Source of the DNA: Candidatus Micrarchaeum sp.
GTDB lineage: Archaea; Micrarchaeota; Micrarchaeia; Micrarchaeales; Micrarchaeaceae
Direction: 5' to 3'
NCBI RefSeq assembly: GCF_016806735.1
Contig: NZ_CP060530.1
Coordinates: 720,001 to 752,000 of the forward strand
DNA length: 32,000 nucleotides
Shown here one piece after another: positions 1 through 32,000 of this stretch (position 1 is the stretch's first letter; every line of letters starts with the position of its first letter). The notes under the pieces were generated by a model. It was given only the letters and a program-made list of their open reading frames with translations. It was not told where the DNA came from and ran no database searches. The translations under genes and the position numbers were made by a program.

Positions 1-693
1 ATTAAGCACAATACTTTGCCTTGGTGTTTGTGATAGGTTAACTATATTATTTACCCAACATGTAGTGTTACGGGCAGTTGCATTAACGTAATAAAATCCA
101 CTCACATTATATTGCGCAGAGAAGCAAGTTTGTCCAAAATAACAATTTGTATAGTCTGTAATAGTTATCTGATCTGTCCAGTTTGCAGTCTGAAAGACAA
201 CCTTCGAGTTATATGTTATCGATGGATAATACAAGAAGATGTAGGCAAGAATTAGTGGTACAACTATAAATGCAATCACATAGCCAATCATTTGTTTTTT
301 CCTAGATGCAGAGATTATTTCGCCACTGCTCATTATTATGCCCCCAGCCAAAGCGACCAAAGGACCTATAAAAATATTAGACAACGTAGCAGCAGATGCA
401 TATAGCCACATTACTGAACCAATACTAACTACAATACCTCGCCTTATAATTAACCCAATTGGGATTGCAAATAGAGTTAATAAGATTGCCAATTGAGGTA
501 GTGAAGTAACGGTTAGTCCTTGGCCTGCTAATACACCAAATGCACCAAAACCAAATATCGAAAATATTACATCATAATAAAATGTTGCTAGACTTGTTGG
601 TGAACCAGCAAAAATCATCCACTCTACAAATAAAGAGATAAATACGATTATTGCACCAAAGAAAATTATTCCTTGGGCACCCCTTATATGCAT
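1..693 (-). CDS. multi-pass membrane protein of unknown function, incomplete at the window edge
   Basis: Not in the supplied track because no stop lies inside the window. I read all 231 minus-strand codons by hand: ATG at 693-691, upstream in-frame TGA at 714-712, no stop down to base 1. The translation MHIRGAQGIIFFGAIIVFISLFVEWMIFAG... has several hydrophobic spans followed by a polar N/T/C-rich region. About 32% GC. Confidence 0.6.
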   Translation of the reverse strand, partial: MHIRGAQGIIFFGAIIVFISLFVEWMIFAGSPTSLATFYYDVIFSIFGFGAFGVLAGQGLTVTSLPQLAILLTLFAIPIGLIIRRGIVVSIGSVMWLYASAATLSNIFIGPLVALAGGIIMSSGEIISASRKKQMIGYVIAFIVVPLILAYIFLYYPSITYNSKVVFQTANWTDQITITDYTNCYFGQTCFSAQYNVSGFYYVNATARNTTCWVNNIVNLSQTPRQSIVLN

Positions 694-1313: not shown

Positions 1314-2328
1314 TAGATTTAAAGAAGCAAATAACTTTATTAGCAAGCTTTCAAATGACTTGTTTAAATGCAACATTTGTGGCATGCTCAGCAAGAATCA
1401 ACAGTCTATGCAAAATCACGTTGCTGGATTCCACAGCGAATACGTATTCTATAAACGTAAATATGGAAAAATTCCAGATATAGCAACAACCACTTGGATT
1501 AATATTTATTATAGAATATTGTATATGCCGCCTTTAAATTGGTCTGATAAACAGATAGAACTGGCTGCGAGCACGAATAAAGGCTTTATTATGAATGTTA
1601 CAAGAAGCATTCGACGGGTAGTTATTGATGGAAAAACAATTGGATATGTTAATCCTGTTTTAGGTGTAAATCCTCTTTTTAACTCACCCCCTCTTTATGG
1701 CCGACGTGCGTATATTCTTTTAGATCCGATTAACGGTAATACTTTTCCAGTTTCTAGAGAAGTTTTTGAAAGTATCAGTAAAGGAACGGCTTTAGAATAT
1801 CCCTTCCGTAGAGTTCACACAGTTAAGAGTACACCATTAAATGGGAATCAGAAACTAGTTGAGTTTTTAATTAGATTTAGAGAAGGAGGCTGGAACGGCC
1901 TGAGACTAGAGGATAAGAAAATACGTACTAAAGAGATACTTCCAACAGAAAGAATAACCTACGGTTATTCACCTTTAGATTTTATTCCAGATGCAAATAT
2001 GTTTATTGAGCTAGATAAAGCCTTGACGAAGGCGTTTAATATCGTGGATTTCAAATTTACTACAGTGACAGTCTTCTTTGATGAAACCGGCGAACCTTGC
2101 GTTCAAGCTAGGATTGGTGGAACGCTATACGTAGAACACCGCATAGTTGATAGAATTAAATTAGCAAAAGAAGCACCAGAAATAGAAAAAGCATGTTTTG
2201 GAGATAAAGGATTAACGGATTTTATCGAATTTGAGAAAAATTATGTAGAGAAGAATAAAGGAAAAGACACAGAGACGATTAAAGAATGGTTAAATGCAGT
2301 GAACAAACTTATGAAGATAAAAACCTAA
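1300..2328 (+). CDS. hypothetical protein with an N-terminal C2H2 zinc finger
   Basis: Track ORF 1291-2328 starts at GTG; the first ATG is at 1300. CNICGMLSKNQQSMQNHVAGFH fits C-x2-C-x12-H-x4-H (nt 1369-1434). The remaining ~290 aa have no motif I recognise. Confidence 0.7.
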   Translation: MGLFDRFKEANNFISKLSNDLFKCNICGMLSKNQQSMQNHVAGFHSEYVFYKRKYGKIPDIATTTWINIYYRILYMPPLNWSDKQIELAASTNKGFIMNVTRSIRRVVIDGKTIGYVNPVLGVNPLFNSPPLYGRRAYILLDPINGNTFPVSREVFESISKGTALEYPFRRVHTVKSTPLNGNQKLVEFLIRFREGGWNGLRLEDKKIRTKEILPTERITYGYSPLDFIPDANMFIELDKALTKAFNIVDFKFTTVTVFFDETGEPCVQARIGGTLYVEHRIVDRIKLAKEAPEIEKACFGDKGLTDFIEFEKNYVEKNKGKDTETIKEWLNAVNKLMKIKT

Positions 2329-2344
2329 ATCTCTCACTTTTGTA

Positions 2345-2554
2345 ATGTTCAGTGATAACATAGGTAGGTTGCTTATGCAGGAGAGAATGGCGGTAAAAAA
2401 GGTAGTAGCAGAGTTTATTAAGAATATGATAACAAAAGACGCCATACACATCGGACTATCGAAAATGCAGATGTTCAGGTTGAAGAAAAAGATAAAAGAA
2501 GGAAAAAAGATAGTGTTAAAAAGGAAAACGGTAAAGAAGTTAACGAGGGCGTAG
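2345..2554 (+). CDS. small lysine-rich, probably DNA-binding (HTH-like) protein
   Basis: 69-aa ORF. An alternative start is ATG 2375 (MQERMAVKK...), preceded by aggtag. The C-terminal half is very basic (RLKKKIKEGKKIVLKRKTVKKL). The stop lies 2 nt before the next gene's GTG start. Confidence 0.5.
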   Translation: MFSDNIGRLLMQERMAVKKVVAEFIKNMITKDAIHIGLSKMQMFRLKKKIKEGKKIVLKRKTVKKLTRA

Positions 2555-2556
2555 AC

Positions 2557-3387
2557 GTGAAAACACCAGAATTGGTAGTAAGGCCACTTAATTTTACTCT
2601 GAGCAAAAAGGTAACTTTCCCTATAGCAAATGAAGACCTTACACCTATAGCTAAGCACTTAAGAAAATTAAGAGGTATGAGATACTACCTCGGAATCTGT
2701 GGAGGCGGAACTCAAAATCTGTATCTTTTTCAGATACTAGATAAGTCGAATAAATTTAAATGGAGACGACTTATAGACAACGATAAGGAACAACTGCTAA
2801 ACTTTATGGATATAAAAGATGCTCTTCTGTATTCAAATGGCGACCTTCATTATCTATCAAATCTCGCTAAACGCCAACATGCAGTTGAAGGGATTTATTC
2901 CAGATACTTCTATTTCCTTTTTAAAAACAAGTCTCGTGGCTTTGAAGAAACAAATCTGAAAAGACCGAGACTAAAGGATATGGAGATAGAATTGGTCTAT
3001 AGTGAATTTTTGAACTATATTACGAATGAAAAACTGCCAAGAGGAAAATATTTTATTTATCTTTCCAACATATTTGGTTATACAAAAATGTCTCGAAGAC
3101 TATGGTGGATAAGGAGATTGACTATATTAAAAGAAATACCACATGGTAATTTTAAAACACTTAAATTGAGGGCAGAATTGAGGTACACACTCAAAGAGCT
3201 TCAAAGTACAGTAGCCAAAAATAAGAACATACTTGATGGTTCAGTAATGTTAGTGTGGATAGGAGGTGTAAAACTGAGAACAAAATCTAAAAGTATCGTA
3301 TTGTTTAAGAAAACAAATGGAAAGATAGAGATACTTACTGAAGTATCAATAACCGACAACGATAACCACATTTGGTCGAGAATATGA
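2557..3387 (+). CDS. hypothetical protein (276 aa), island-encoded
   Basis: Long ORF with a GTG start immediately after the upstream stop. Its stop overlaps the next start (ATGA). No catalytic motif was recognised. I looked for tyrosine-recombinase R..HxxR..Y and HUH Rep motifs and found none convincing. Confidence 0.6.
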   Translation: MKTPELVVRPLNFTLSKKVTFPIANEDLTPIAKHLRKLRGMRYYLGICGGGTQNLYLFQILDKSNKFKWRRLIDNDKEQLLNFMDIKDALLYSNGDLHYLSNLAKRQHAVEGIYSRYFYFLFKNKSRGFEETNLKRPRLKDMEIELVYSEFLNYITNEKLPRGKYFIYLSNIFGYTKMSRRLWWIRRLTILKEIPHGNFKTLKLRAELRYTLKELQSTVAKNKNILDGSVMLVWIGGVKLRTKSKSIVLFKKTNGKIEILTEVSITDNDNHIWSRI

Positions 3388-3668
3388 GATTCTTTGGTAA
3401 CAGTATGTTTCCAACACTAAAATCAGGTAAACCAGTAAAAATTATCCCAATCAGACATTGTACTTATAAAGATGTTAAAGTCGGTGATATAGTTTCTTAT
3501 TGGTCTAGCGGTTTTAATAGAGATGGAAAACCTCGCTTTTGGCATAAAGCAAACGTAGTCCATCGAATAATTGGTAAAACTCCAACATGCGCCTTAATCA
3601 AGGGAGATAACAGAGAATATGTAGAAAAAGTGTTCTACAATAAGATAAACGGCAAAATTCTACTTTAG
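3384..3668 (+). CDS. miniature type I signal-peptidase-like (S26/S24-fold) protein without a membrane anchor
   Basis: The 94-aa protein MRFFGNSMFPTLKSG...VKVGDIVSY...VVHRIIGK...IKGDNRE carries the conserved signal-peptidase boxes in canonical order: SM-PTL with the Ser nucleophile, GDIV, HR-I-G at the general-base position, and GDN. ATG 3384 overlaps the upstream TGA. The track starts at TTG 3372. Confidence 0.6.
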   Translation: MRFFGNSMFPTLKSGKPVKIIPIRHCTYKDVKVGDIVSYWSSGFNRDGKPRFWHKANVVHRIIGKTPTCALIKGDNREYVEKVFYNKINGKILL

Positions 3669-3678
3669 TTTTGTAACA

Positions 3679-3954
3679 ATGATATTATGTCTTACATTAC
3701 CGCCCCTTCTGTTGCGTGATAGTTACGTAACAACCGCAAACAATACTTGCCAATATGAATGTGGTGCTGATTACTTTTGTAATGTTGATAGTTCTTGCTA
3801 CAACAATAAATGTGTTTCGTGTAATTCTGGCTATGTATTAGGCAGTGATGGACTATGCCATCAAGAATGTGGCAGTTCAACAACTCACTGTACTGGTTCA
3901 AATTCATACTGCTATAATAATCAGTTTGTGTCGTGTCCTACGGGTTCTATTTAA
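3679..3954 (+). CDS. Cys-rich small secreted protein with an internal duplication
   Basis: It has a hydrophobic N-terminus (MILCLTLPPLLL) followed by two related modules, CQYECGADYFCNVDSSCYNNKCVSCNSG and CHQECGSSTTHCTGSNSYCYNNQFVSCPTG. There are 12 Cys in 91 aa. Confidence 0.55.
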   Translation: MILCLTLPPLLLRDSYVTTANNTCQYECGADYFCNVDSSCYNNKCVSCNSGYVLGSDGLCHQECGSSTTHCTGSNSYCYNNQFVSCPTGSI

Positions 3955-4050
3955 GGACTAATAGTCAATGCTATTACAGTTAGACTGCAATCCCTCTCTT
4001 TCTCCGTGCTAAAGCTATGTTGGAAGAAGGCAACATTTGGGGCTTCTATA

Positions 4051-4081
4051 TATAACCCCCATAAACAGAATGGGGAGTAGG
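4051..4081. repeat. right copy of the att-like direct repeat, overlapping the last ~10 nt of tRNA-Pro
   Basis: See 971-999. This copy spans the tRNA 3' acceptor strand (4071-4080) and about 20 nt of 3' flank. Confidence 0.45.
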
Positions 4082-4143
4082 AGATTTGAACTCCTATAGC
4101 GAGCGCCCAAGGCTCGCAGTCTGCCAGGTTAGCGTAACTCCCC
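4071..4143 (-). tRNA. tRNA-Pro (anticodon UGG); CCA not encoded
   Basis: Minus-strand sequence: GGGGAGTTACGCTAACCTGGCAGACTGCGAGCCTTGGGCGCTCGCTATAGGAGTTCAAATCTCCTACTCCCCA. It has a perfect 7-bp acceptor stem, a 5-bp anticodon stem CGAGC/GCTCG with loop CTTGGGC, and a T-arm AGGAG-TTCAAAT-CTCCT. The D-loop has the GG, but the D-stem pairs poorly (see findings). Confidence 0.75.
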
Positions 4144-4185
4144 TTTTGCAGTATTTATTAGTCGAATGCTTTTTTATTACTTTGT

Positions 4186-6165
4186 TTACCAGAGATTCAC
4201 GTTGTCGTGCTTGGTTGCTATCGTTCTTTTTTTGCTTAGCTCCTTGAATTCCTTTTGGAACGACTCGTGGGTTATTGCAGGAATCAATCCCCTGAATTTT
4301 TCTGGAGAATGCGGGTCTATAAGTACTAGCCTCTTCGACTCTTCCGGCCTTGCCTTGCCCTTGTACATCTGCGCCCAGGCTATGAAGAACCTTTGCTCCT
4401 GCGTGAAACCGTCAATCAGCTTTTCTTTGTATCCGCTTTTCTTTAACGCCATCTTAAGCGCGTCGAAAGCTATGTTTATGCCGCCCAAATCTGCTATGTT
4501 CTCTCCCAATGTGAGCTTGCCGTTTACCTTTAGGCCAGGCATCACCTCCAATGAGCCGTAAAGCCTTGCGACCTTCTCTGCCTTTGATTTAAACTTGTTT
4601 TCATCAGTCTTCCGCCACCATCCCTTCAGGTTGCCCTTCTTGTCATAGCGGCTGCCCTGGTCGTCGAACCCGTGCGTCATCTCATGACCTATGACTCCGC
4701 CTATGCATGCATAGTTAACTGCATCGTCCTTGTTTGCGTCGAAGAACGGAGGCTGGAATATCCCGGCAGGAAATACGATCTCGTTTAGCGAGGGATTGTA
4801 GTACGCGTTGACTGTGGGAGGAGTCATTCCCCATTCGTTCCTGTCGACTGGCTTCCCTATTCTTGATATGTCCCTGTCGAATTCGAACGCATAGGCCATC
4901 TGGAAGTTCCTTACCAAGTCGTCCCTTTTTAATAGGAGCTTTGAATAATCCCTGAATTTCTTCGGATATCCTATCTTCTGGTTTATCGAAGCGAGCTTGT
5001 CCAATGCCTTCTTCTTTGTCTGCTCAGACATCCAGTCTATCTTTTTTATCCTTTCCGCGAAAGAGCTTCTCACGTTGGCAACAAGCTCATCTGCTTTCCT
5101 TTTTGTCTTTGCATCGAAGTTCTGTTTTACATAGAGCGCGCCGAGGGCCTCGCCTATCATGTAGTCGATGAGAGATACTCCGCGCTTCCAGCGCGGCCTT
5201 GGTGATTTCTGGCCGGATATTTTCCTGCCGAAGAAGCCGAAGTACTCATTGTAAACCGCCTTGTGCAAAAGCCCCGAATATGTGTGCAGCACTAACCACG
5301 TAAGATACGCCTTTGCCTTATTCAGCTCCAGTTCTGGAATCATCTTTTCCAATTTATCGAAGAATTCAGGCTGGCCTATTATTGCGTAGCTTATACTCTT
5401 TGCGCCTAGAGCCTTGTAGTATTCCTCTAGGCCCAATTTCTTGTACCTTGAGCTTATCTGCTTTATCGTCATTTTGTTGTAATTCTTCCTGTCGTCCCTG
5501 AGCTCTACGTTGGTGCGCTGGACCTTTGCCAATTCCGTCTCTATGTCCATTACGGCTTTTGCGTCAGCCATCGCATACGAAGGCTTCGAGCCATAGAGGG
5601 TGAAAACGCTCTTTATGTGTTTGACATATTCTTTTCGAAGCTCTGCGAACTTTGGGTTAAGGTAGTAATCCCTGTCAGGAAGCGAGGTTCCTCCCTGCCA
5701 CGTATAAAGCGCGTATATTTCACTGTTTTTTATGTCGGATGTTACGTAAGAGCTGAAGAAAGCGTTTACGCCGATGCGGGCCAGCTCTCCAAGCAGAGAA
5801 GGAATCTTTTCTATGCTTTCCATGTCCCTTATTTTTTTCATTATCGGCATTACGGGCTTGAATTTCAGCCTTTCTGCGAGATTCTCGTTCATGTACGAAG
5901 AGTAGAAATCGCCAACAAGGCGTTCTGTATGGCTATCGGGCTTGCCATTGGCGCATTTCTCTGCTATGTCCTTAAGTATGAGCATGTTGGCTTCGTAGAG
6001 TTCGTCGAAAGAACCTATTCTTGTCTTTTCTTTTGGTATGTCATGCGTTTTTAGCCAACTGCCGCTTGAGTAAGAATAGAAGTCGCCGAACGGGTCGACA
6101 GACCTGTCCATGTTTTTAACAGAAAACCCTATTTTATCCAATACTGATTTTTTATTGGCTGCCAT
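4186..6165 (-). CDS. pepO: M13-family zinc metalloendopeptidase (neprilysin/PepO-like)
   Basis: 659 aa. It has the HExxH motif in VIGHEMTHGFD and the family-typical GENIADLGG and NAYY motifs. No N-terminal hydrophobic segment is present. Confidence 0.92.
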   Translation of the reverse strand: MAANKKSVLDKIGFSVKNMDRSVDPFGDFYSYSSGSWLKTHDIPKEKTRIGSFDELYEANMLILKDIAEKCANGKPDSHTERLVGDFYSSYMNENLAERLKFKPVMPIMKKIRDMESIEKIPSLLGELARIGVNAFFSSYVTSDIKNSEIYALYTWQGGTSLPDRDYYLNPKFAELRKEYVKHIKSVFTLYGSKPSYAMADAKAVMDIETELAKVQRTNVELRDDRKNYNKMTIKQISSRYKKLGLEEYYKALGAKSISYAIIGQPEFFDKLEKMIPELELNKAKAYLTWLVLHTYSGLLHKAVYNEYFGFFGRKISGQKSPRPRWKRGVSLIDYMIGEALGALYVKQNFDAKTKRKADELVANVRSSFAERIKKIDWMSEQTKKKALDKLASINQKIGYPKKFRDYSKLLLKRDDLVRNFQMAYAFEFDRDISRIGKPVDRNEWGMTPPTVNAYYNPSLNEIVFPAGIFQPPFFDANKDDAVNYACIGGVIGHEMTHGFDDQGSRYDKKGNLKGWWRKTDENKFKSKAEKVARLYGSLEVMPGLKVNGKLTLGENIADLGGINIAFDALKMALKKSGYKEKLIDGFTQEQRFFIAWAQMYKGKARPEESKRLVLIDPHSPEKFRGLIPAITHESFQKEFKELSKKRTIATKHDNVNLW

Positions 6166-6189
6166 TTGATTACCGAATTGTTGCTCGTT

Positions 6190-6354
6190 TTAAGTCCTTC
6201 CACATCTTTCTTTTTTCTGTTCTTCGCTCCTATTTAGCTTTTTTAAGCTTGATGTCTCATCAGCCATCTCTCTCATTGCAATTGCGTAGGCAATCCCTTT
6301 TGTTTCTTTTTCAGGTGTTTCGAGTTTTTCCTCCCTGCACTTAAAAATCGGCAT
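6190..6354 (-). CDS. possible small protein (54 aa)
   Basis: Below the track's length cut-off; translated by hand as MPIFKCREEKLETPEKETKGIAYAIAMREMADETSSLKKLNRSEEQKKERCGRT*. A GAGG lies about 12 nt upstream of the ATG. It sits in an otherwise empty 330-bp gap between pepO and rfcS. Confidence 0.35.
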   Translation of the reverse strand: MPIFKCREEKLETPEKETKGIAYAIAMREMADETSSLKKLNRSEEQKKERCGRT

Positions 6355-6495
6355 ACTCGTTTTTGCCTCTTAACTAATTTAGCGGTTTCGCAAAAATGCG
6401 CGCATTTTTATGCCTTATTGCAGTGTTTTCTCCACGCACGTGCATAGTTAAATATTTTTACCCGAAAATAGTCAATGCTAATGCTGATGATTATC

Positions 6496-7461
6496 ATGCC
6501 GAATCTTGATTTGCCTTGGACGGAAAAATACAGGCCCAAAAGCCTTGAGGAAGTCATAGGCCAGAAGCCGATAGTTGAAAGGCTTAAGTCCTTCATAAAG
6601 GGCAGCAACTTCCCAAACATGATATTTGCCGGAAGCGCGGGAATAGGGAAGACCACATGCGCCATTGCACTTGCCCGGGACCTTTACGGGACGGATCTTG
6701 AAGGTGCCTTCAAAGAGCTGAACGCAAGCGATGCGAGGGGAATAGACGTAATAAGAGGAGAAGTAAAGAACTTCGCAAGGACCGTATCCATTGCCAGCGT
6801 GCCTGTAAAAATTATATTTTTGGATGAAGCTGACTCGCTTACCGCCGATGCGCAGCACGCGCTCAGGCGCACGATGGAGAAGTATTCATCCGAGACAAGG
6901 TTCATACTCAGCGCCAACTACGCCAGCAAGATAATAGAGCCCATACAGAGCAGGTGCGTAGTTTTCAGGTTCAAGCAGCTCACTTCGGCAGACATGCGCA
7001 AATATGTAGAAAGGATAGCAGGGGAAGAAGGGCTTGAGATGGATGACAAAGCGATTGAGGCGCTTATTTATGTTGGAGACGGAGACATGAGGAAGCTTAC
7101 CAACGTCCTGCAGAGCGCTGCGATGTTCTCAAAGAAGATAACTGAATCGGAAGTCTACAACGTAGCTTCAAGGGCAAGGCCTACGGAAATAATATCTATG
7201 CTCAAATACAGCGTCGAAGGCAACTTCGAGAAGGCAAGGGAGGAGCTTGACACGCTGATGCTGAAGCACGGGCTTGGCGCAGAAGACATACTGACCCAGT
7301 GCTACAGGGAAATACAGTCAATGAATATAGATGAAAGGGCCAAGCTCAAGACGATAAGTTACATAGGCGAATGCAACTTCAGGGTAGTTGAAGGAGCGAA
7401 TGAACGCATACAATTAGAAGCGTTCCTTGCAAACCTGTCTCTAATAGCCAAGGGCCAGTAG
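6496..7461 (+). CDS. rfcS: replication factor C small subunit
   Basis: PWTEKYRP N-terminal box, Walker A GSAGIGKTT, Walker B LDEADSLT, and the SRC motif (QSRCVVF). The track ORF starts at 6475. ATG 6496 (MPNLDLPW...) gives the usual N-terminal length. Confidence 0.93.
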   Translation: MPNLDLPWTEKYRPKSLEEVIGQKPIVERLKSFIKGSNFPNMIFAGSAGIGKTTCAIALARDLYGTDLEGAFKELNASDARGIDVIRGEVKNFARTVSIASVPVKIIFLDEADSLTADAQHALRRTMEKYSSETRFILSANYASKIIEPIQSRCVVFRFKQLTSADMRKYVERIAGEEGLEMDDKAIEALIYVGDGDMRKLTNVLQSAAMFSKKITESEVYNVASRARPTEIISMLKYSVEGNFEKAREELDTLMLKHGLGAEDILTQCYREIQSMNIDERAKLKTISYIGECNFRVVEGANERIQLEAFLANLSLIAKGQ

Positions 7462-27542: not shown

Positions 27543-27681
27543 AAACGCACCATAGGTATTGGTTGTTATTGATTATTAATAGCCGTAAAAAGCTAAAACA
27601 CTTATGAAAGGAAACGTTCTTCTGATTAGTAGTTTGGCCACAATTTAAGCTTTTACAGGACTATATGCACAAAACGCAGAA

Positions 27682-27693
27682 ATATATTTAAAG
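27682..27693 (+). promoter_or_regulatory. TATA-like box for micro-ORF A
   Basis: atatatttaaag lies about 47-58 nt upstream of ATG 27740. It is conserved in unit B as gtatttaaag. Confidence 0.4.
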
Positions 27694-27739
27694 ACTGCTG
27701 TTCCATTTTGCTTTGAAATATAAAATATTGGGTGAAAAA

Positions 27740-27817
27740 ATGAAGGGAGGAACAAACGGCGGGAAAATCATAGGAGGACCACACAGCGGAATCGTTGGAG
27801 GACCACACGGAGGATAA
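27740..27817 (+). CDS. Gly/His-rich micro-protein (25 aa), MKGGTNGGKIIGGPHSGIVGGPHGG
   Basis: Hand-translated and too short for the track. GGTGA lies 6 nt upstream of the ATG. A TATA-like box is upstream and T-runs are downstream. The first 8 codons and the whole 5' region are duplicated at 28138-28230. Confidence 0.45.
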   Translation: MKGGTNGGKIIGGPHSGIVGGPHGG

Positions 27818-27825
27818 TCTAAATA

Positions 27826-27858
27826 TTTCTTTTACTTTTTCTATCAGATATTTTTATT
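27826..27858 (+). terminator. oligo-T tracts (archaeal-type terminator) after micro-ORF A
   Basis: tttcttttactttttc and tttttatt begin 9 nt after the stop codon, on the plus strand only. Confidence 0.35.
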
Positions 27859-27865
27859 GTTAGTT

Positions 27866-28129
27866 CTATTTGTATAATGTTCTTTTCTGCGGTTGTATGG
27901 ATTTTCTCTTTACAAGGCTAAGGTATTGATCACTGTAAAGATTGTCGAACTTCCTGCAGATATTTATTATTATAGTTTTTAGGATTAAAGAATCAGATTT
28001 TACGCCTTTTATTACCTTAAAAAGATCGTTTTCTATGGCCTCAGTATCACTCTCTTTTAATACAGGAGATATATGGAATATTCCGTCAGGGGTTTCAATG
28101 TCGTAGGTTAGGATTCGCCTTTTACAAGG
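27866..28129 (-). pseudogene. 5'-truncated remnant of an Lrp/AsnC-like gene (paralogue of the C-terminus of 28301-29716)
   Basis: An 87-codon open frame without a start: PCKRRILTYDIETPDGIFHISPVLKESDTEAIENDLFKVIKGVKSDSLILKTIIINICRKFDNLYSDQYLSLVKRKSIQPQKRTLYK*. It aligns with ...DMETPDGIFYLFPVLKEEDIEKIKGELSETIKGVKFDSLIIERMIIGNICYRKFDNLYSDQYLALVKKKLISAQKRTLY... Confidence 0.6.
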
Positions 28130-28151
28130 TTATACCCCAAAACGCAGAAAC

Positions 28152-28161
28152 GTATTTAAAG
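28152..28161 (+). promoter_or_regulatory. TATA-like box for micro-ORF B
   Basis: gtatttaaag occupies the same position relative to ATG 28208 as the box in unit A. Confidence 0.35.
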
Positions 28162-28207
28162 ACTGCTGTTCCATTTTGCTTTGAAATATAGGATATTGGG
28201 TGAAAAA

Positions 28208-28237
28208 ATGAAGGGAGGACCAAACGGCGGAAGATAA
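28208..28237 (+). CDS. truncated copy of the micro-ORF (9 aa, MKGGPNGGR)
   Basis: It has the same SD and start context as 27740. Relative to copy A, 48 nt carrying both GGPH repeats are missing, with the frame kept. T-runs lie at 28242-28260. Confidence 0.25.
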   Translation: MKGGPNGGR

Positions 28238-28300
28238 GGAATTTTATTCTCTTTTGTTCTAATTAAGTTTAGATTTTATTATGTCGATTTATTAGGTATT

Positions 28301-29716
28301 TTAATTATTATTTGATTTAGTAATATATAACGTTCTTTTCTGTGCCGATATAAGTTTCTTTTTTACCAATGCCAAGTATTGATCACTATAAAGATTGTCG
28401 AACTTCCTGTAGCATATATTTCCTATTATCATTCTCTCTATGATCAGCGAATCAAATTTAACTCCTTTTATTGTTTCGGAAAGTTCGCCTTTTATTTTTT
28501 CGATGTCTTCCTCTTTTAATACTGGGAATAGGTAAAATATCCCGTCTGGGGTTTCCATGTCGCATATATAAGAGAACCTGCTTATTGCTTTATTTGGTTC
28601 ATTTATTATATACTTGTGATGGTTATATTTAGAATTTATAAATTTTTCCTTATTCGTTATATTTTCAAGTATTATGGCATCATATCTTTTGTTTATAGTG
28701 GTTACTGTAAGCGTAGACCTTAATATTGCGCTCTTTCCTTCTTCGTTCATTAAATCTTCATAAGCCCTTTTTGCACTGCCTATTGGAAGATTATATTTTC
28801 TGTCTATCGATGCAAAACTTTTGGTACTGTCTTCGTTCAATTCACAGAGAATGGCGTATTCCCTGTACATCAAGCTAGATGCACCGGGTTTTTCTCCGTG
28901 CTTCTTCCGACGCCAGACCTTCTCTTTTAGAACATCGAAAAACTCTTGGCGTAATGGTACAAATCCATAATCCGTCGCAATTGGAGTTATGTACCACTCT
29001 GACTCTATGCCCTTAAGCACTGCTGCTGTCCTTATGCTGTCTAGGACATCTGCAACCACGTTGTTGTTTTCCGCAACACAGAAAATAGCAAGATCGTATG
29101 TACCCTTGGCAGCAAGGGCAAGCTGCACTCTTGGGTTCTTTTCCAGTGCTGCCCTTACTGCTTCGTGGCTTGGCTTGTCGCTTATGAATTTTGCGAGAAT
29201 CATGTACTCGGAAAAGCCAAGGTTGTTCATGTTAAGCTCGAGCGTGTACTTTATCCCCAGGATTCTTTCCAGCCTTTTTATCCTGTATTCCAGCACATGC
29301 AGCGGTATTCCCGTAATTGAGGAAATCCTTGCATGGGGAAGCCTCGAGTTCATGCTTAATGCTTCCAGCAGCAGAATGTCTTCGTTGCCAAGAGCCTCGT
29401 CAAGCGTTCTTTCAGAAGCGGCTTTCCTTTTTTCCTCAAGTTCCCTCTGGTGTTCAATCATTTTATTGTATTCGAATTCCAGGGCCTTAAGCCTTGCTTC
29501 GCTCTGTTTTGGCTTTGCAGGTATTACTACGCCGTTATCGGTTATCCATCCTATATAATGAGTTATCTTTACCGGCTTTTTTCTTTTGCTGTCCCATTTG
29601 CTCGTGGCCTCAAATACGCAGAATCTTTTGTTTAAGAATTTCAGCTCTATATGCCCGCCGTAAGACTTTTTGAGCTCATCGAAGACCTCTTTTATCTTTA
29701 TGGGAGCTTCCGCCAT
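28301..29716 (-). CDS. two-module Lrp/AsnC-family transcriptional regulator with an extra N-terminal domain
   Basis: Module 1: DILLLEALSMNSRLPHARISSITGIPLHVLEYRIKRLERILGI (HTH) followed by a RAM-like region with PRVQLALAAKGTYDLAIFCVA. Module 2 begins at M283: YAILCELNEDSTKSFASIDRKYNLPIGSAKRAYEDLMNEEG plus a RAM-like C-terminus. Residues 1-100 have no assignment. Confidence 0.85.
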   Translation of the reverse strand: MAEAPIKIKEVFDELKKSYGGHIELKFLNKRFCVFEATSKWDSKRKKPVKITHYIGWITDNGVVIPAKPKQSEARLKALEFEYNKMIEHQRELEEKRKAASERTLDEALGNEDILLLEALSMNSRLPHARISSITGIPLHVLEYRIKRLERILGIKYTLELNMNNLGFSEYMILAKFISDKPSHEAVRAALEKNPRVQLALAAKGTYDLAIFCVAENNNVVADVLDSIRTAAVLKGIESEWYITPIATDYGFVPLRQEFFDVLKEKVWRRKKHGEKPGASSLMYREYAILCELNEDSTKSFASIDRKYNLPIGSAKRAYEDLMNEEGKSAILRSTLTVTTINKRYDAIILENITNKEKFINSKYNHHKYIINEPNKAISRFSYICDMETPDGIFYLFPVLKEEDIEKIKGELSETIKGVKFDSLIIERMIIGNICYRKFDNLYSDQYLALVKKKLISAQKRTLYITKSNNN

Positions 29717-29808
29717 GCAAAGGCCGATTTTATTTATTTTAATTATATTTCCGCGTTCAAGTTATTTATTGGTTCCTATGGGTATACAAATCTAAAATAT
29801 TAAAAAAT

Positions 29809-29835: not shown

Positions 29836-30023
29836 TATGGTTTGGACGTAAGGGCAGTGAAAAGGCAAATTTTATTTATAAAGAAAAGCCCATAATCTTA
29901 CTCAAGCAATATGTGGGGGTTGAGGATAATGAAGAACAGTGGGATAATGCTTTTCGCTATGCCTCTTGTTTTCCACCCATGTACTATTTCCCCACATACT
30001 GCTTCATGTTAATAGGTGGGAAT

Positions 30024-30143
30024 ATGTTTGGATGGAATAAAAGGAAGAATGAAGTTGTTGTTGCAGATAACAACGACAACAGGCCAGTAAAGATGGTCCA
30101 GATATCAGAGAACGTTTACAGGTTCGTCTGGGCAGACGAATAA
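30024..30143 (+). CDS. micro-protein (39 aa), first gene of the divergent operon; start uncertain
   Basis: MFGWNKRKNEVVVADNNDNRPVKMVQISENVYRFVWADE. The ATG is preceded by taataggtgggaat, the same SD context as the next gene (taataggtggggaa-ATG at 30164). The track's longest version starts at GTG 29913 with no SD. A 27-codon ORF in another frame (29929-30012, MKNSGIMLFAMPLVFHPCTISPHTASC, with GAGG 5 nt upstream) is an alternative reading of that upstream stretch. Confidence 0.4.
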   Translation: MFGWNKRKNEVVVADNNDNRPVKMVQISENVYRFVWADE

Positions 30144-30163
30144 TAACGCTAATAGGTGGGGAA

Positions 30164-30502
30164 ATGAGTCAAAAACAAAAAGGGAGCGGAAGCGCTGCGA
30201 AACAGCGCGTTAGGGATCCGAAGAAGTTCTTCGTTGTGAAAAGGAATGGAAAGACGTACCACAAGTTCTTTTTAATAAAGCCGAAGCAGGGAATGGACCT
30301 CAACATGCTTGCGAACGATCTTGCAGCACTTCCTGACGTATTGGAGGTTTACGCCACCGAAGGAACCATAGGATTCATGGTAAAGGCAAGATTCGACGGA
30401 GAAAAAGAGCCGGAGCAGGTAGCGCAATACATAGAGAAGAATGTTTCAAAGGACTACGGGACTCTTGTCAGCTACATAAACTTCAAGAGGTGCGCAAGAT
30501 GA
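30164..30502 (+). CDS. stand-alone RAM (Lrp/AsnC ligand-binding-type) domain protein with a basic N-terminal tail
   Basis: FFLIKPKQGMDLNMLANDLAALPDVLEVYATEGTIGFMVKARF matches the beta-alpha-beta-beta pattern of AsnC-type effector domains. No HTH is present. The SD is GGTGGGG. Confidence 0.7.
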   Translation: MSQKQKGSGSAAKQRVRDPKKFFVVKRNGKTYHKFFLIKPKQGMDLNMLANDLAALPDVLEVYATEGTIGFMVKARFDGEKEPEQVAQYIEKNVSKDYGTLVSYINFKRCAR

Positions 30503-30750
30503 GCCTCAAAATGTGGTATTTGAAGCATTTCGACAAGGACAGGCTTCTGGATGAACTCTCGAAGCCTGCAGAGGGGGAATATGTTGTGATCAGGGATGGG
30601 CCAAATACGTCGGTACGCGTGCCGGTAGAAGAACTTGACGGATATATCAATTACCTGAAGGACAAAGCTGCAATCTGCATGGATGAATACAAAAAGTATA
30701 ATAAAGAAAGAAAGTCGGGCGATAGCGTTAAATTAGGTGATGAAATATGA
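30499..30750 (+). CDS. hypothetical protein (83 aa)
   Basis: ATG 30499 overlaps the upstream TGA (ATGA) and has GAGGTG 7 nt upstream. The track begins at GTG 30490. No motif recognised. Confidence 0.65.
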   Translation: MSLKMWYLKHFDKDRLLDELSKPAEGEYVVIRDGPNTSVRVPVEELDGYINYLKDKAAICMDEYKKYNKERKSGDSVKLGDEI

Positions 30751-31166
30751 GTAAAAATGATAGTAAGGACAAAGAAACAACTGGTAGAGTTCTGTTGAGA
30801 AAAGAGAATCAACAGAAGTTAGAGGGTAGAGTCGTGTCTTATGGCAAAGCAGACACTATGTGCGGAATCGCTATGCATTTGACTCCAGAAACTAAATATA
30901 TTCCTGTTACAATTCCAAAGCCATTGATACTATTAGTAGAGGATGGAACAATACACGAAGCAGAGCTTAATCCAGATATATTTTACGCCTCAGATGCAAT
31001 AATAATGAAAACTGGTGGCGAGCTGGCACATATAGCTGTAATAGCCAGAGAACGTGGCATATTGGCAGTGTCTGAAATACCAGTTGATAAAATAAAGAAC
31101 GGAACTAAAGTAACAATAAAGACTATTGATCTGGAAGACGAAATAAAAGCTTTGGTAGAATTTTAG
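30747..31166 (+). CDS. stand-alone PEP-utilizing-enzyme mobile (phosphohistidine swivel) domain protein
   Basis: DAIIMKTGGELAHIAVIARERGILAV matches the GG-x-(T/L)-(S/A)-H-x-A-(I/V)-x-A-R-E-x-G-I-P-x-V signature, including the phospho-carrier His. ATGA overlap with the upstream gene. Confidence 0.8.
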   Translation: MSKNDSKDKETTGRVLLRKENQQKLEGRVVSYGKADTMCGIAMHLTPETKYIPVTIPKPLILLVEDGTIHEAELNPDIFYASDAIIMKTGGELAHIAVIARERGILAVSEIPVDKIKNGTKVTIKTIDLEDEIKALVEF

Positions 31167-31178
31167 TGAAGTGATATT

Positions 31179-32000
31179 ATGGGCAATATATCAAAAGAGA
31201 ATAAATATGCATTAATTAATGATACGGATATTTCAAGAATAAAGCTTGCAAAAATGTTTATTGATACGAGTAATAATCCTGATGCAGTTGTTGAAGATTT
31301 TGTTAAACGAGCGCTCAAAAATTATAATATATTATATGGGGTGAAAGATAGTGGAAACCTGCTAAAGTTAAAATGTAATAGCAAAGAAGGGCTCATATTA
31401 TACAGAGATGCATATTTGGAGCTGATAAAAATAAAAGACAGTATTTATAATAATGAAGTGCAAAAATTTGCAGTTTCTATATTTGGGAAAAAGTTCAATG
31501 ACTTATCTGTAGAAGAGCTTGGAATATTTAAAGAAATAATGCGTTTTAGTATAAATGTGTACAGGCTGAATATTCCGCTGTCTATAAACTTCAAGCCAAT
31601 AGCTTATGCAAATATGGAACGAATAAAATACGAAAGGCATCTATCTACAAGAGATTATATGTCTATACTTTCATTGGCGCACGAGTCTGGAATGTCAGAG
31701 TACAGAAGAATGCATATCGCATACTGTGTAGAACAGGATAAAGAAGTCAAGCAGAGAAAGTTCAAAGAGCTTTTAGATCTTTATCACCTTGGTTCTGAAA
31801 GGCTCGCACTTATTAGGATTTCCAATGACTTCATTAATGGGATACCGCAAGGCTATTTAGAGAAACAGAACAAACCCGCTTATGTAAATGTTGATGAAGA
31901 AATAAGTGCCATATTAGACCTTATAAACTTTGACAACTATTACAGCTTATTACATAGGAAACGCCTTTCATCGCTTGCCGATGCTTTTCTGAGAGGTTAT
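31179..32000 (+). CDS. hypothetical protein, incomplete at the window edge (at least 274 aa)
   Basis: Not in the track. I translated 274 codons from ATG 31179 without a stop (MGNISKENKYALINDTDISRIKLAKMF...LADAFLRGY). Very AT-rich: 22% and 27% GC in two 60-nt samples. Confidence 0.65.
   Translation, partial: MGNISKENKYALINDTDISRIKLAKMFIDTSNNPDAVVEDFVKRALKNYNILYGVKDSGNLLKLKCNSKEGLILYRDAYLELIKIKDSIYNNEVQKFAVSIFGKKFNDLSVEELGIFKEIMRFSINVYRLNIPLSINFKPIAYANMERIKYERHLSTRDYMSILSLAHESGMSEYRRMHIAYCVEQDKEVKQRKFKELLDLYHLGSERLALIRISNDFINGIPQGYLEKQNKPAYVNVDEEISAILDLINFDNYYSLLHRKRLSSLADAFLRGY

Follow-up and report, generated by a model that had tools for sequence, protein, structure and literature searches.

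A putative three-component dikinase cassette, carried by only some strains, adjoins a conserved regulator-linked small-gene unit in Candidatus Micrarchaeum

Organisation of the locus

The right end of the DNA stretch analysed here (the window: 32,000 nucleotides of the 989,838-bp genome labelled Candidatus Micrarchaeum sp., contig NZ_CP060530.1, positions 720,001 to 752,000) carries a compact string of small genes on the plus strand, among them one for a free phospho-histidine swivel protein, which continues past the last base into genes for a hydrolase and an ATP-grasp protein and which may encode a dikinase in three parts. Coordinates are those of the window; the same contig runs on past base 32000, and positions there are called window-equivalent, that is, the coordinate in L002, a locus with an exact match to the window's final 2 kb, plus 20746.

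The string lies divergently from the gene of a two-module Lrp/AsnC-like regulator of 471 amino acids (aa; 28301-29716, minus strand). It begins, on the plus strand throughout, with a TATA-like element, TTTATTTATAAA (29871-29882), and a highly conserved 5' leader (29886-30023) that holds a candidate uncalled open reading frame (ORF) of 33 aa (29911-30012). There follow the gene of a 39-aa micro-protein (30024-30143; annotated as Micr_00799 in the complete genome), that of a 112-aa RAM-only protein resembling demi-FFRPs (see below) and bearing a basic N-terminal arm (30164-30502), p83 (83 aa; 30499-30750), the stand-alone swivel gene (139 aa; 30747-31166) and p354, which encodes a 354-aa all-alpha protein and whose first 274 codons occupy 31179-32000, its stop codon lying at window-equivalent 32243. 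Beyond the window, genes for an alpha/beta hydrolase (221 aa, window-equivalent 32266-32931, plus strand) and a PPDK_N ATP-grasp protein (292 aa, window-equivalent 32953-33831, plus strand) complete the string; a 533-nt spacer, a 70-aa zinc-finger protein (zn70) and isoleucyl-tRNA synthetase (IleRS) come next.

ATGA overlaps join the RAM-only gene to p83 and p83 to the swivel gene, and a 12-nt gap precedes p354, all at the positions given by the first-pass annotation, a reading of this DNA made from its letters and ORFs; its description of a tight, translationally coupled gene string is supported at the level of sequence. The 39-aa ORF is preceded by TAATAGGTGGGAATATG and the 112-aa ORF by the near-identical TAATAGGTGGGGAAATG, with the common form TAATAGGTGGG(G)AA(T)ATG, and TAGGTGG occurs in the window only at these two sites. 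Base composition is layered: GC content is 0.46-0.47 between 30200 and 30600, the swivel gene has 0.37-0.385, and the stretch 31100-31600 has 0.285-0.295. The layers noticed in the first pass are thus real, and the 22-27% it reported for the poorest layer is slightly too low, the minimum being about 28-29%. The string's three uncharacterised products (39 aa, 83 aa and at least 274 aa) have no family match in Pfam, NCBIfam, PADLOC or PHROGs.

A phospho-histidine swivel protein and its nucleotide-binding partner

The 139-aa protein matches PF00391 with 29.5 bits (gathering cut-off 23.1) and has kept the phospho-carrier histidine, as had been noticed: the motif GGELAH95IAVIARERG aligns with GGRTCHAAIIARE of the phosphoenolpyruvate (PEP) synthase 2OLS and conforms to the family pattern G-G-x-x-x-H-x-A-(I/V)-x-A-R-E. 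The identical swivel sequence occurs on contigs indexed in 48 blocks of the sequence collection (23 contigs read). No partner domain is recognisable inside the window, and the swivel had accordingly been described as an orphan. Extending the contig past base 32000 contradicts this description, since a nucleotide-binding partner sits in the same gene string: the ATP-grasp gene begins 953 bases past the window's end, two genes downstream and in the same orientation, and its product is a stand-alone PPDK_N protein (full-length match, 200 bits, E 6.7e-59). The best PDB matches of this protein are entries of rifampin phosphotransferase (RPH), at the top, and PEP synthases.

It is annotated as a 'putative phosphoenolpyruvate synthase', and its best NCBIfam models are those of PEP synthase, with equivalog scores far under the cut-offs (160 versus 598 bits). 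None of the operon proteins has a Pfam or NCBIfam match to the PEP/pyruvate-binding TIM barrel (PF02896, PEP-utilizers_C). The first pass had considered that the downstream genes might prove to be a standard PEP synthase or PPDK in pieces; an ATP-grasp piece does exist, and the operon is nevertheless not a split PEP synthase, because the PEP/pyruvate-binding barrel is missing from it. The hydrolase matches Abhydrolase_11 (E 1.6e-21) and has the Ser, Asp and His motifs GKS106FGG, GDSDP and ADH191S.

p354 and its peptidase-fused relatives

The complete p354 protein matched only itself in a word-based search of 5.8 billion clusters, and an exhaustive phmmer search of 1.84 billion representatives recovered three relatives with 29-37% identity, two of which are found in the reference-genome collection, both in metagenome-assembled genomes of Micrarchaeota; no relative outside Micrarchaeota was detected in these searches. 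Each relative is about 550 aa long and consists of a p354-like all-alpha domain followed by a DUF3335/C39-like peptidase domain that keeps its Q, C, H and D residues, whereas p354 itself has no DUF3335/C39 domain and shows Tyr in the column of the catalytic Cys. A swivel homologue lies directly upstream in two of the three cases.

An AlphaFold2 model of p354 is all-alpha, with a predicted local distance difference test (pLDDT) score of 67. No PDB match was obtained with the p354-family profile, and a Foldseek search of the model against PDB gave a best E-value of 0.24. The p83 model (helix-helix-hairpin-long helix, pLDDT 70) likewise found nothing significant in PDB, so that the structural comparison proposed in the first pass was made for both proteins and assigned a fold to neither.

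We infer that p354 is the acceptor-binding component, since it always stands beside a swivel gene, is fused or adjacent to a C39-like domain and has no competitor for the role among the proteins present. In one related locus (L006) the C39-like domain is itself fused to a swivel. Homology between p354 and the 322-aa and 331-aa uncharacterised proteins encoded beside swivel genes in L012 and L006 was considered and rejected, BLASTP being negative; hhalign gives a colinear alignment of p354 with the L006 protein that is suggestive only (E 0.011, probability 3.7%) and is not counted as evidence.

An accessory segment joined to a conserved unit

Contigs for comparison were reached through variants of the RAM-only protein and the micro-protein. 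In seven of them, the micro-ORF, the RAM-only gene and a gene for a 73- or 74-aa protein (p73/p74) are followed directly by CTP synthase. One more contig, L032, has the micro-ORF, the RAM-only gene and p73 followed by zn70, IleRS, PLD and Big_1 genes as in the window's locus, and has no swivel, p354, hydrolase or ATP-grasp gene; it represents the empty site. L032 is 94% identical to L002 up to L002 position 9853 and again 97.7% identical from 13529 onwards. In a sliding comparison with the empty-site allele, the left break lies where the RAM-only gene stops and p83 starts (window ~30496): nucleotide identity, at least 94% before this point, drops to 70-80% and, after ~30600, to less than 50%. 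The strain-variable segment extends from 30497 through the window's end (left part 30497-32000) to window-equivalent ~34274, 3.78 kb in all, and comprises p83, the swivel gene, p354, the hydrolase gene, the ATP-grasp gene and a 443-nt tail. Its first gene, p83, is a diverged allele of p73/p74, with which it aligns over its whole length; p73 has a weak match to Prefoldin_2. GC content at third codon positions (GC3) is 0.29-0.36 in the swivel, p354, hydrolase and ATP-grasp genes, as against 0.50-0.57 in the micro-ORF, RAM-only gene and p83 and 0.52-0.64 in the flanking housekeeping genes.

The empty-site allele and the contrast in GC3 make the RAM/regulator part and the phosphotransfer part separable, and the locus is therefore two joined, naturally separable units: a conserved regulator-linked unit and a 3.8-kb accessory segment present in only some strains. 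The same two observations demonstrate directly the mosaic assembly that the first-pass annotation had suspected from composition. Its idea of a phosphotransfer function of an uncharacterised kind also holds, while its view of the string as one integrated module, with RAM domains and phospho-carrier sensing together, is unlikely, given that in most strains the RAM-only gene and the micro-ORF occur without a swivel or ATP-grasp gene and together with p73 and a homologous regulator.

Most of the variants listed for the swivel, hydrolase and ATP-grasp proteins in their 90%-identity clusters are full length; a few shorter hydrolase variants have 209-217 aa. No relic of a YcaO, C39 or radical-SAM gene was found by tblastn in the 443-nt tail. 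An origin of the segment in a defence system, phage or plasmid was rejected, as the proteins of the locus have no match among PADLOC defence models and only noise-level scores in PHROGs, and no relatives were found in viral contigs, phage records or plasmid records.

Related gene clusters

Homologues of four cassette genes occur together in L020 (= L023, Micrarchaeota), with identities of 50% for the hydrolase, 33% for the swivel, 36% for the ATP-grasp protein and 28% for the p354 domain; the swivel homologue keeps its His and lies directly upstream of the p354-family gene. This cluster also encodes a YcaO protein whose best match is the SagD family of thiazole/oxazole maturases (TOMM_cyclo_SagD, E 6e-56), a radical-SAM enzyme, a 433-aa uncharacterised protein, a C39-like peptidase domain and, ahead of the swivel gene, a 29-aa ORF containing Cys and Thr, MAKIKIEEVFEIENAGLTLVCTTGKPNSV. 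In L017 a 33-aa ORF shares the motif IKIEEV with the small ORF of L020, and a swivel homologue (37.5% identity; L017 7559-7999 = L022 9412-9945) lies directly upstream of a p354-C39 fusion; its phospho-carrier His has given way to Tyr (GNVASYMSCIARE) and an ATP-grasp gene is missing from the vicinity, so that this swivel appears, from its sequence, to be a decayed, inactivated copy.

The proteins most similar to the ATP-grasp protein (37-41% identity) likewise stand alone and lie in similar gene skeletons, in which a swivel, an uncharacterised protein of ~320-350 aa, a variable gene and PPDK_N recur. L012 (ATP-grasp identity 41%) has a swivel gene, the 322-aa protein, a SPASM fragment and the ATP-grasp gene, and L006 has a 42-aa ORF, the 331-aa protein, a DUF3335-swivel fusion, a radical SAM/SPASM gene and a hydrolase gene. 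More distant stand-alone swivel/ATP-grasp pairs occur in Woesearchaeota and elsewhere, in unrelated contexts.

The contig of the closest p354 relative (L016, protein P0123) has neither a swivel nor an ATP-grasp gene; it carries a fragment of a RAM-only homologue at 3-185 (30% identity over 60 aa) and, at 1878-6688, a 143-aa Lrp/AsnC regulator, an asparagine synthase homologue and a DUF2268 predicted Zn protease.

The conserved small-gene unit

Among eight strains in three genomic contexts, similarity begins at the TATA-like element, the left edge of the conserved block, and runs through the leader, the 39-aa ORF, the RAM-only gene and p73. By analogy with archaeal promoter geometry, the element would act as a promoter. 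In a comparison of L026-L031, L033 and L032 with the window, the small-gene trio keeps at least 90% nucleotide identity in three different neighbourhoods, beside regulators of only 28-29% identity, and the left recombination boundary of the trio coincides with the TATA-like element.

Comparative sequence data indicate that the 39-aa micro-protein noticed in the first pass is a real gene under purifying selection, because the strains show many synonymous differences and in-frame single-codon deletions, the ratio of non-synonymous to synonymous differences (pN/pS) is 0.14, and an upstream indel destroys longer frames. Its C-terminal FVWADE is invariant, it contains no Cys or Thr, and it is found in strains with no dikinase cassette as well. 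Versions of this first ORF with 76 or 54 aa were rejected on account of a 1-nt indel before 30024 in five of the eight strains and a pN/pS of 1.41 in the 76-aa frame.

The leader is more conserved than the coding regions, with four variable sites in 137 nt (pS 0.058 versus 0.15-0.23 in neighbouring genes). The candidate 33-aa ORF within it encodes MWGLRIMKNSGIMLFAMPLVFHPCTISPHTASC, ending in HPCTISPHTASC (CTISPHTASC); it starts ~6 nt after the predicted transcription start, is identical in seven of the eight strains and has a pN/pS of 0.06 in its frame, a value drawn from only four variable sites. Its product is absent from a collection of 15 billion proteins. A 15-bp inverted repeat in the leader (29904-29918 / 29990-30004) would sequester the ATG at 29911. 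A structured-RNA interpretation of the leader was also considered and is not supported, given the absence of an Rfam match at E up to 1, a fold z-score of -1.6 and the lack of covariation or compensatory changes.

The RAM-only protein, so described in the first pass, is indeed RAM-like, with a match to the Lrp/AsnC RAM domain just below the Pfam cut-off (E 5e-5) and another to the RAM domain of PH1519 in PDB (E 0.002); the basic tail attributed to it is mainly an N-terminal stretch (residues 1-35), the C-terminus having only a short NFKRCAR. Its gene has a pN/pS of 0.04, belongs to a 90%-identity cluster of 77 members and is present with or without the cassette. By analogy with related proteins, it probably binds a small effector and modulates the regulator. 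The 39-aa gene thus validated and the possible uncalled 33-aa gene are a separate yield of the comparison of this conserved, regulator-linked unit.

Relation to known systems

Phenylphosphate synthase of Thauera consists of three subunits, with the ATP-grasp domain on a separate polypeptide. PEP synthase and PPDK share homologous nucleotide-binding and swivel domains with the cassette, and differ from it in that the cassette has no PEP/pyruvate-binding TIM barrel and is strain-variable. RPH and the PRK06241 'PEP synthase-like' dikinases also combine a PPDK_N ATP-grasp domain with a His-bearing swivel and work through a phospho-histidine mechanism (PMC4844700); RPH, however, is a single chain of 860 aa with a rifampin-binding domain, in contrast to the three proteins found here, of which p354 has no detectable similarity to that domain. 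In the two-component dikinase HpeHI of Rhodococcus, too, the ATP-grasp domain forms a polypeptide of its own; the enzyme depends on its swivel His and uses a substrate other than pyruvate (PMC12167813). The HpeH swivel, however, is fused to the acceptor-binding domain, whereas that of the cassette is free, and HpeHI acts on phenolic substrates in bacterial catabolic operons, while the cassette belongs to a DPANN archaeon and is linked to peptidase, YcaO and radical-SAM genes.

Those links recall the thiazole/oxazole-modified microcin (TOMM)/YcaO clusters for ribosomally made peptides with post-translational modifications (RiPPs) that have C39 leader peptidases: L020 shares with them a SagD-family YcaO, a C39-like domain, a radical-SAM gene and a short Cys/Thr ORF, while these hallmarks are all absent from the window's locus. 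Full-text literature searches pairing YcaO or RiPP with PPDK_N, PEP-utilizing or dikinase returned nothing relevant, and on these searches such clusters have not been described as including a PPDK_N/swivel dikinase. What would be new here is a PEP-synthase/RPH-type dikinase of several components, the third of them lineage-specific, encoded in a strain-variable cassette of a cultivated DPANN lineage.

A model for the cassette and its alternatives

In this superfamily phosphate passes from ATP to a pyrophospho-His, then a phospho-His and finally an acceptor, a route documented for RPH (PMC4844700) and for HpeHI (PMC12167813), an experimentally established two-component dikinase. We consider it reasonably probable that the locus encodes a three-component RPH/HpeHI-like dikinase plus a hydrolase acting on an acceptor, probably a peptide, behind a separate conserved small-gene unit. 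By analogy with PEP synthase, RPH and HpeHI, the 292-aa ATP-grasp protein would pyrophosphorylate His95 of the free swivel protein, which would hand the beta-phosphate to an acceptor held by p354, and the serine alpha/beta hydrolase would process the substrate or the product. The acceptor is probably a peptide or peptide-derived compound, because every p354 relative is fused to a catalytically intact C39-like peptidase and one cluster adds YcaO, a radical-SAM gene and the 29-aa Cys/Thr ORF. A more specific form of this mechanism, in which a PEP-synthase-type dikinase phosphorylates a ribosomal peptide through the free phospho-His carrier, for RiPP tailoring or immunity, by means of a Micrarchaeota-specific all-alpha recognition domain that is normally C39-fused and a cassette exchanged among strains, is a tentative possibility that we hold to be rather doubtful.

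Several points weigh against the proposed mechanism. The role given to p354 derives from gene position and fusions, and the protein resembles neither the rifampin-binding domain nor another acceptor domain in sequence or fold, as judged from a moderate model (pLDDT 67) that leaves room for a very remote kinship. The peptide link is indirect, since the C39 domain, YcaO and radical-SAM gene are all absent among the proteins examined at the window/L002 locus. The local micro-ORFs are weak substrate candidates, because cassette-free strains conserve them too and the 39-aa product is devoid of Cys and Thr. The loss of both the phospho-His and the ATP-grasp gene in L017 shows that such cassettes decay, and for Micr_00798-00805 no expression data were found in the supplements of the cultivation paper (PMC8975820).

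A specific version of the proposed mechanism is an orphan resistance or immunity cassette, in which the dikinase would phosphorylate a toxic peptide or antibiotic as RPH does and the hydrolase would degrade it, the toxin being for example a product of related Micrarchaeota YcaO-type clusters or of the host community. The strain-variable and compositionally foreign character of the segment, the retention of dikinase and hydrolase without the core biosynthetic genes of the related cluster, and the position of RPH as the closest match of the ATP-grasp protein among solved structures all accord with it; yet no toxin, transporter or target was identified, and the evidence fits an inactivating and a biosynthetic role alike, which leaves it possible though on the unlikely side. 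Alternatively, the segment could be a decaying, non-functional remnant of a larger YcaO/C39/radical-SAM cluster. In favour of this are p354, in which the peptidase domain of all its relatives is missing and Tyr stands in the catalytic Cys column, and the L017 copy, from which the His and the ATP-grasp gene are gone. Five intact and tightly packed ORFs, however, with His95, the Ser/Asp/His motifs of the hydrolase and a full-length PPDK_N match preserved, and mostly full-length cluster variants, make this unlikely.

RiPP-type maturation of a local precursor, the 39-aa or 33-aa product being phosphorylated by the dikinase and trimmed by the hydrolase, draws on the small ORFs ahead of swivel genes in related clusters, two of which share IKIEEV, and on the Cys- and Thr-containing end of the 33-aa candidate; but both micro-ORFs are at least 90% conserved in many strains that have no cassette, the 39-aa peptide offers no Cys or Thr, and the locus has no leader peptidase, YcaO or radical-SAM gene, and we judge this quite improbable. 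A signalling phosphorelay, with RAM domains as sensors of an amino acid and the swivel as phosphate donor to the regulator, is suggested by the co-orientation and translational coupling of the RAM-domain gene and the phospho-carrier gene. Since the two units are separable in nature and the cassette's relatives, apart from the one weak fragment in L016, show no linkage to RAM proteins, such a phosphorelay is very unlikely. A standard gluconeogenic PEP synthase or PPDK divided among separate genes would agree with the annotation of the ATP-grasp protein and with its best NCBIfam models, and meets the missing barrel, the low equivalog scores and the absence of the cassette from conspecific strains, which is unexpected for central metabolism; it can be given hardly any credence.

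If the proposed three-component dikinase is right, a free swivel protein working with an unrelated acceptor module would extend a superfamily whose split PEP-synthase/RPH-type members came to be seen as a family of small-molecule kinases only recently, and the homologous clusters would tie this family to peptide chemistry of the YcaO/C39/radical-SAM kind in DPANN archaea, a group in which secondary metabolism and interactions with hosts have hardly been explored. In populations resembling Ca. Micrarchaeum harzensis, one such organism being available in stable co-culture (PMC8975820), the cassette is polymorphic for presence and absence, and its proteins are small and expressible, which makes the dikinase hypothesis directly testable. 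Proof of the peptide link would add considerably to the finding; a ribosomal-peptide dikinase, if true, would be the first such system in DPANN archaea.

The divergent regulator and neighbouring features

In feast/famine regulatory proteins (FFRPs), such as FL11 of Pyrococcus, full-length regulators have stand-alone RAM partners ('demi-FFRPs', such as DM1). A comparable pairing of an Lrp-like regulator with a RAM-only protein appears here, with weak PDB matches to PH1519 and to 75-aa AsnC-like RAM proteins, and differs in that the 471-aa regulator has two modules plus an additional N-terminal domain of 110 aa and the RAM protein has a basic N-terminal arm. The regulator matches HTH_24/HTH_AsnC at residues 113-151 and RAM at 183-232 (both just below the Pfam gathering cut-offs), an NCBIfam LysM-type regulator model (E 3e-8) and PH1519 in PDB (E 1.6e-4), matches in keeping with its earlier description as a two-module Lrp protein. 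A regulator is always present in the divergent position across contexts, with homologues of 444-446 aa that are 28-29% identical over their full length in cassette-free strains, and a 57%-identical homologue occurs elsewhere (L024) without the operon.

Two copies of a direct repeat, TG(C/A)AAAGGC(C/A)(G/A)ATTTTATTTAT, lie 142 nt apart in the divergent intergenic region (29716-29737 and 29858-29879), the first overlapping the regulator's start codon and the second the TATA-like element; from their sequence and placement they may be sites for regulator binding or parts of promoters. The regulator's N-terminal sequence, MAEAPIKIKEVFDELKK (IKIKEVF), resembles the small ORFs ahead of the swivel genes of relatives (MAKIKIEEVFEIEN... 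and ...KNIKIEEVSS...; L020 7429-7518, L017 7407-7508). A meaning for this likeness of IKIKEVF to IKIEEV(F) was rejected as it is probably due to chance, the motif not being conserved in regulator homologues.

Downstream of the regulator gene, a degraded tandem duplication of ~460 bp (27670-28137 versus 28138-28600) covers the 3' end of the gene and the region following it, and includes a relic of the last 79 codons (27872-28102, minus strand; 68% amino-acid identity), which accounts for the seemingly 'empty' 758-nt stretch between a MiaB-like gene and the regulator. On the other side, ~6 kb downstream of the cassette, assembly GCA_001889985.1 (L001) diverges from L002-L005, starting at L001 position ~17000, and carries a phage-type integrase gene from 19296, which indicates a second strain-variable region nearby.

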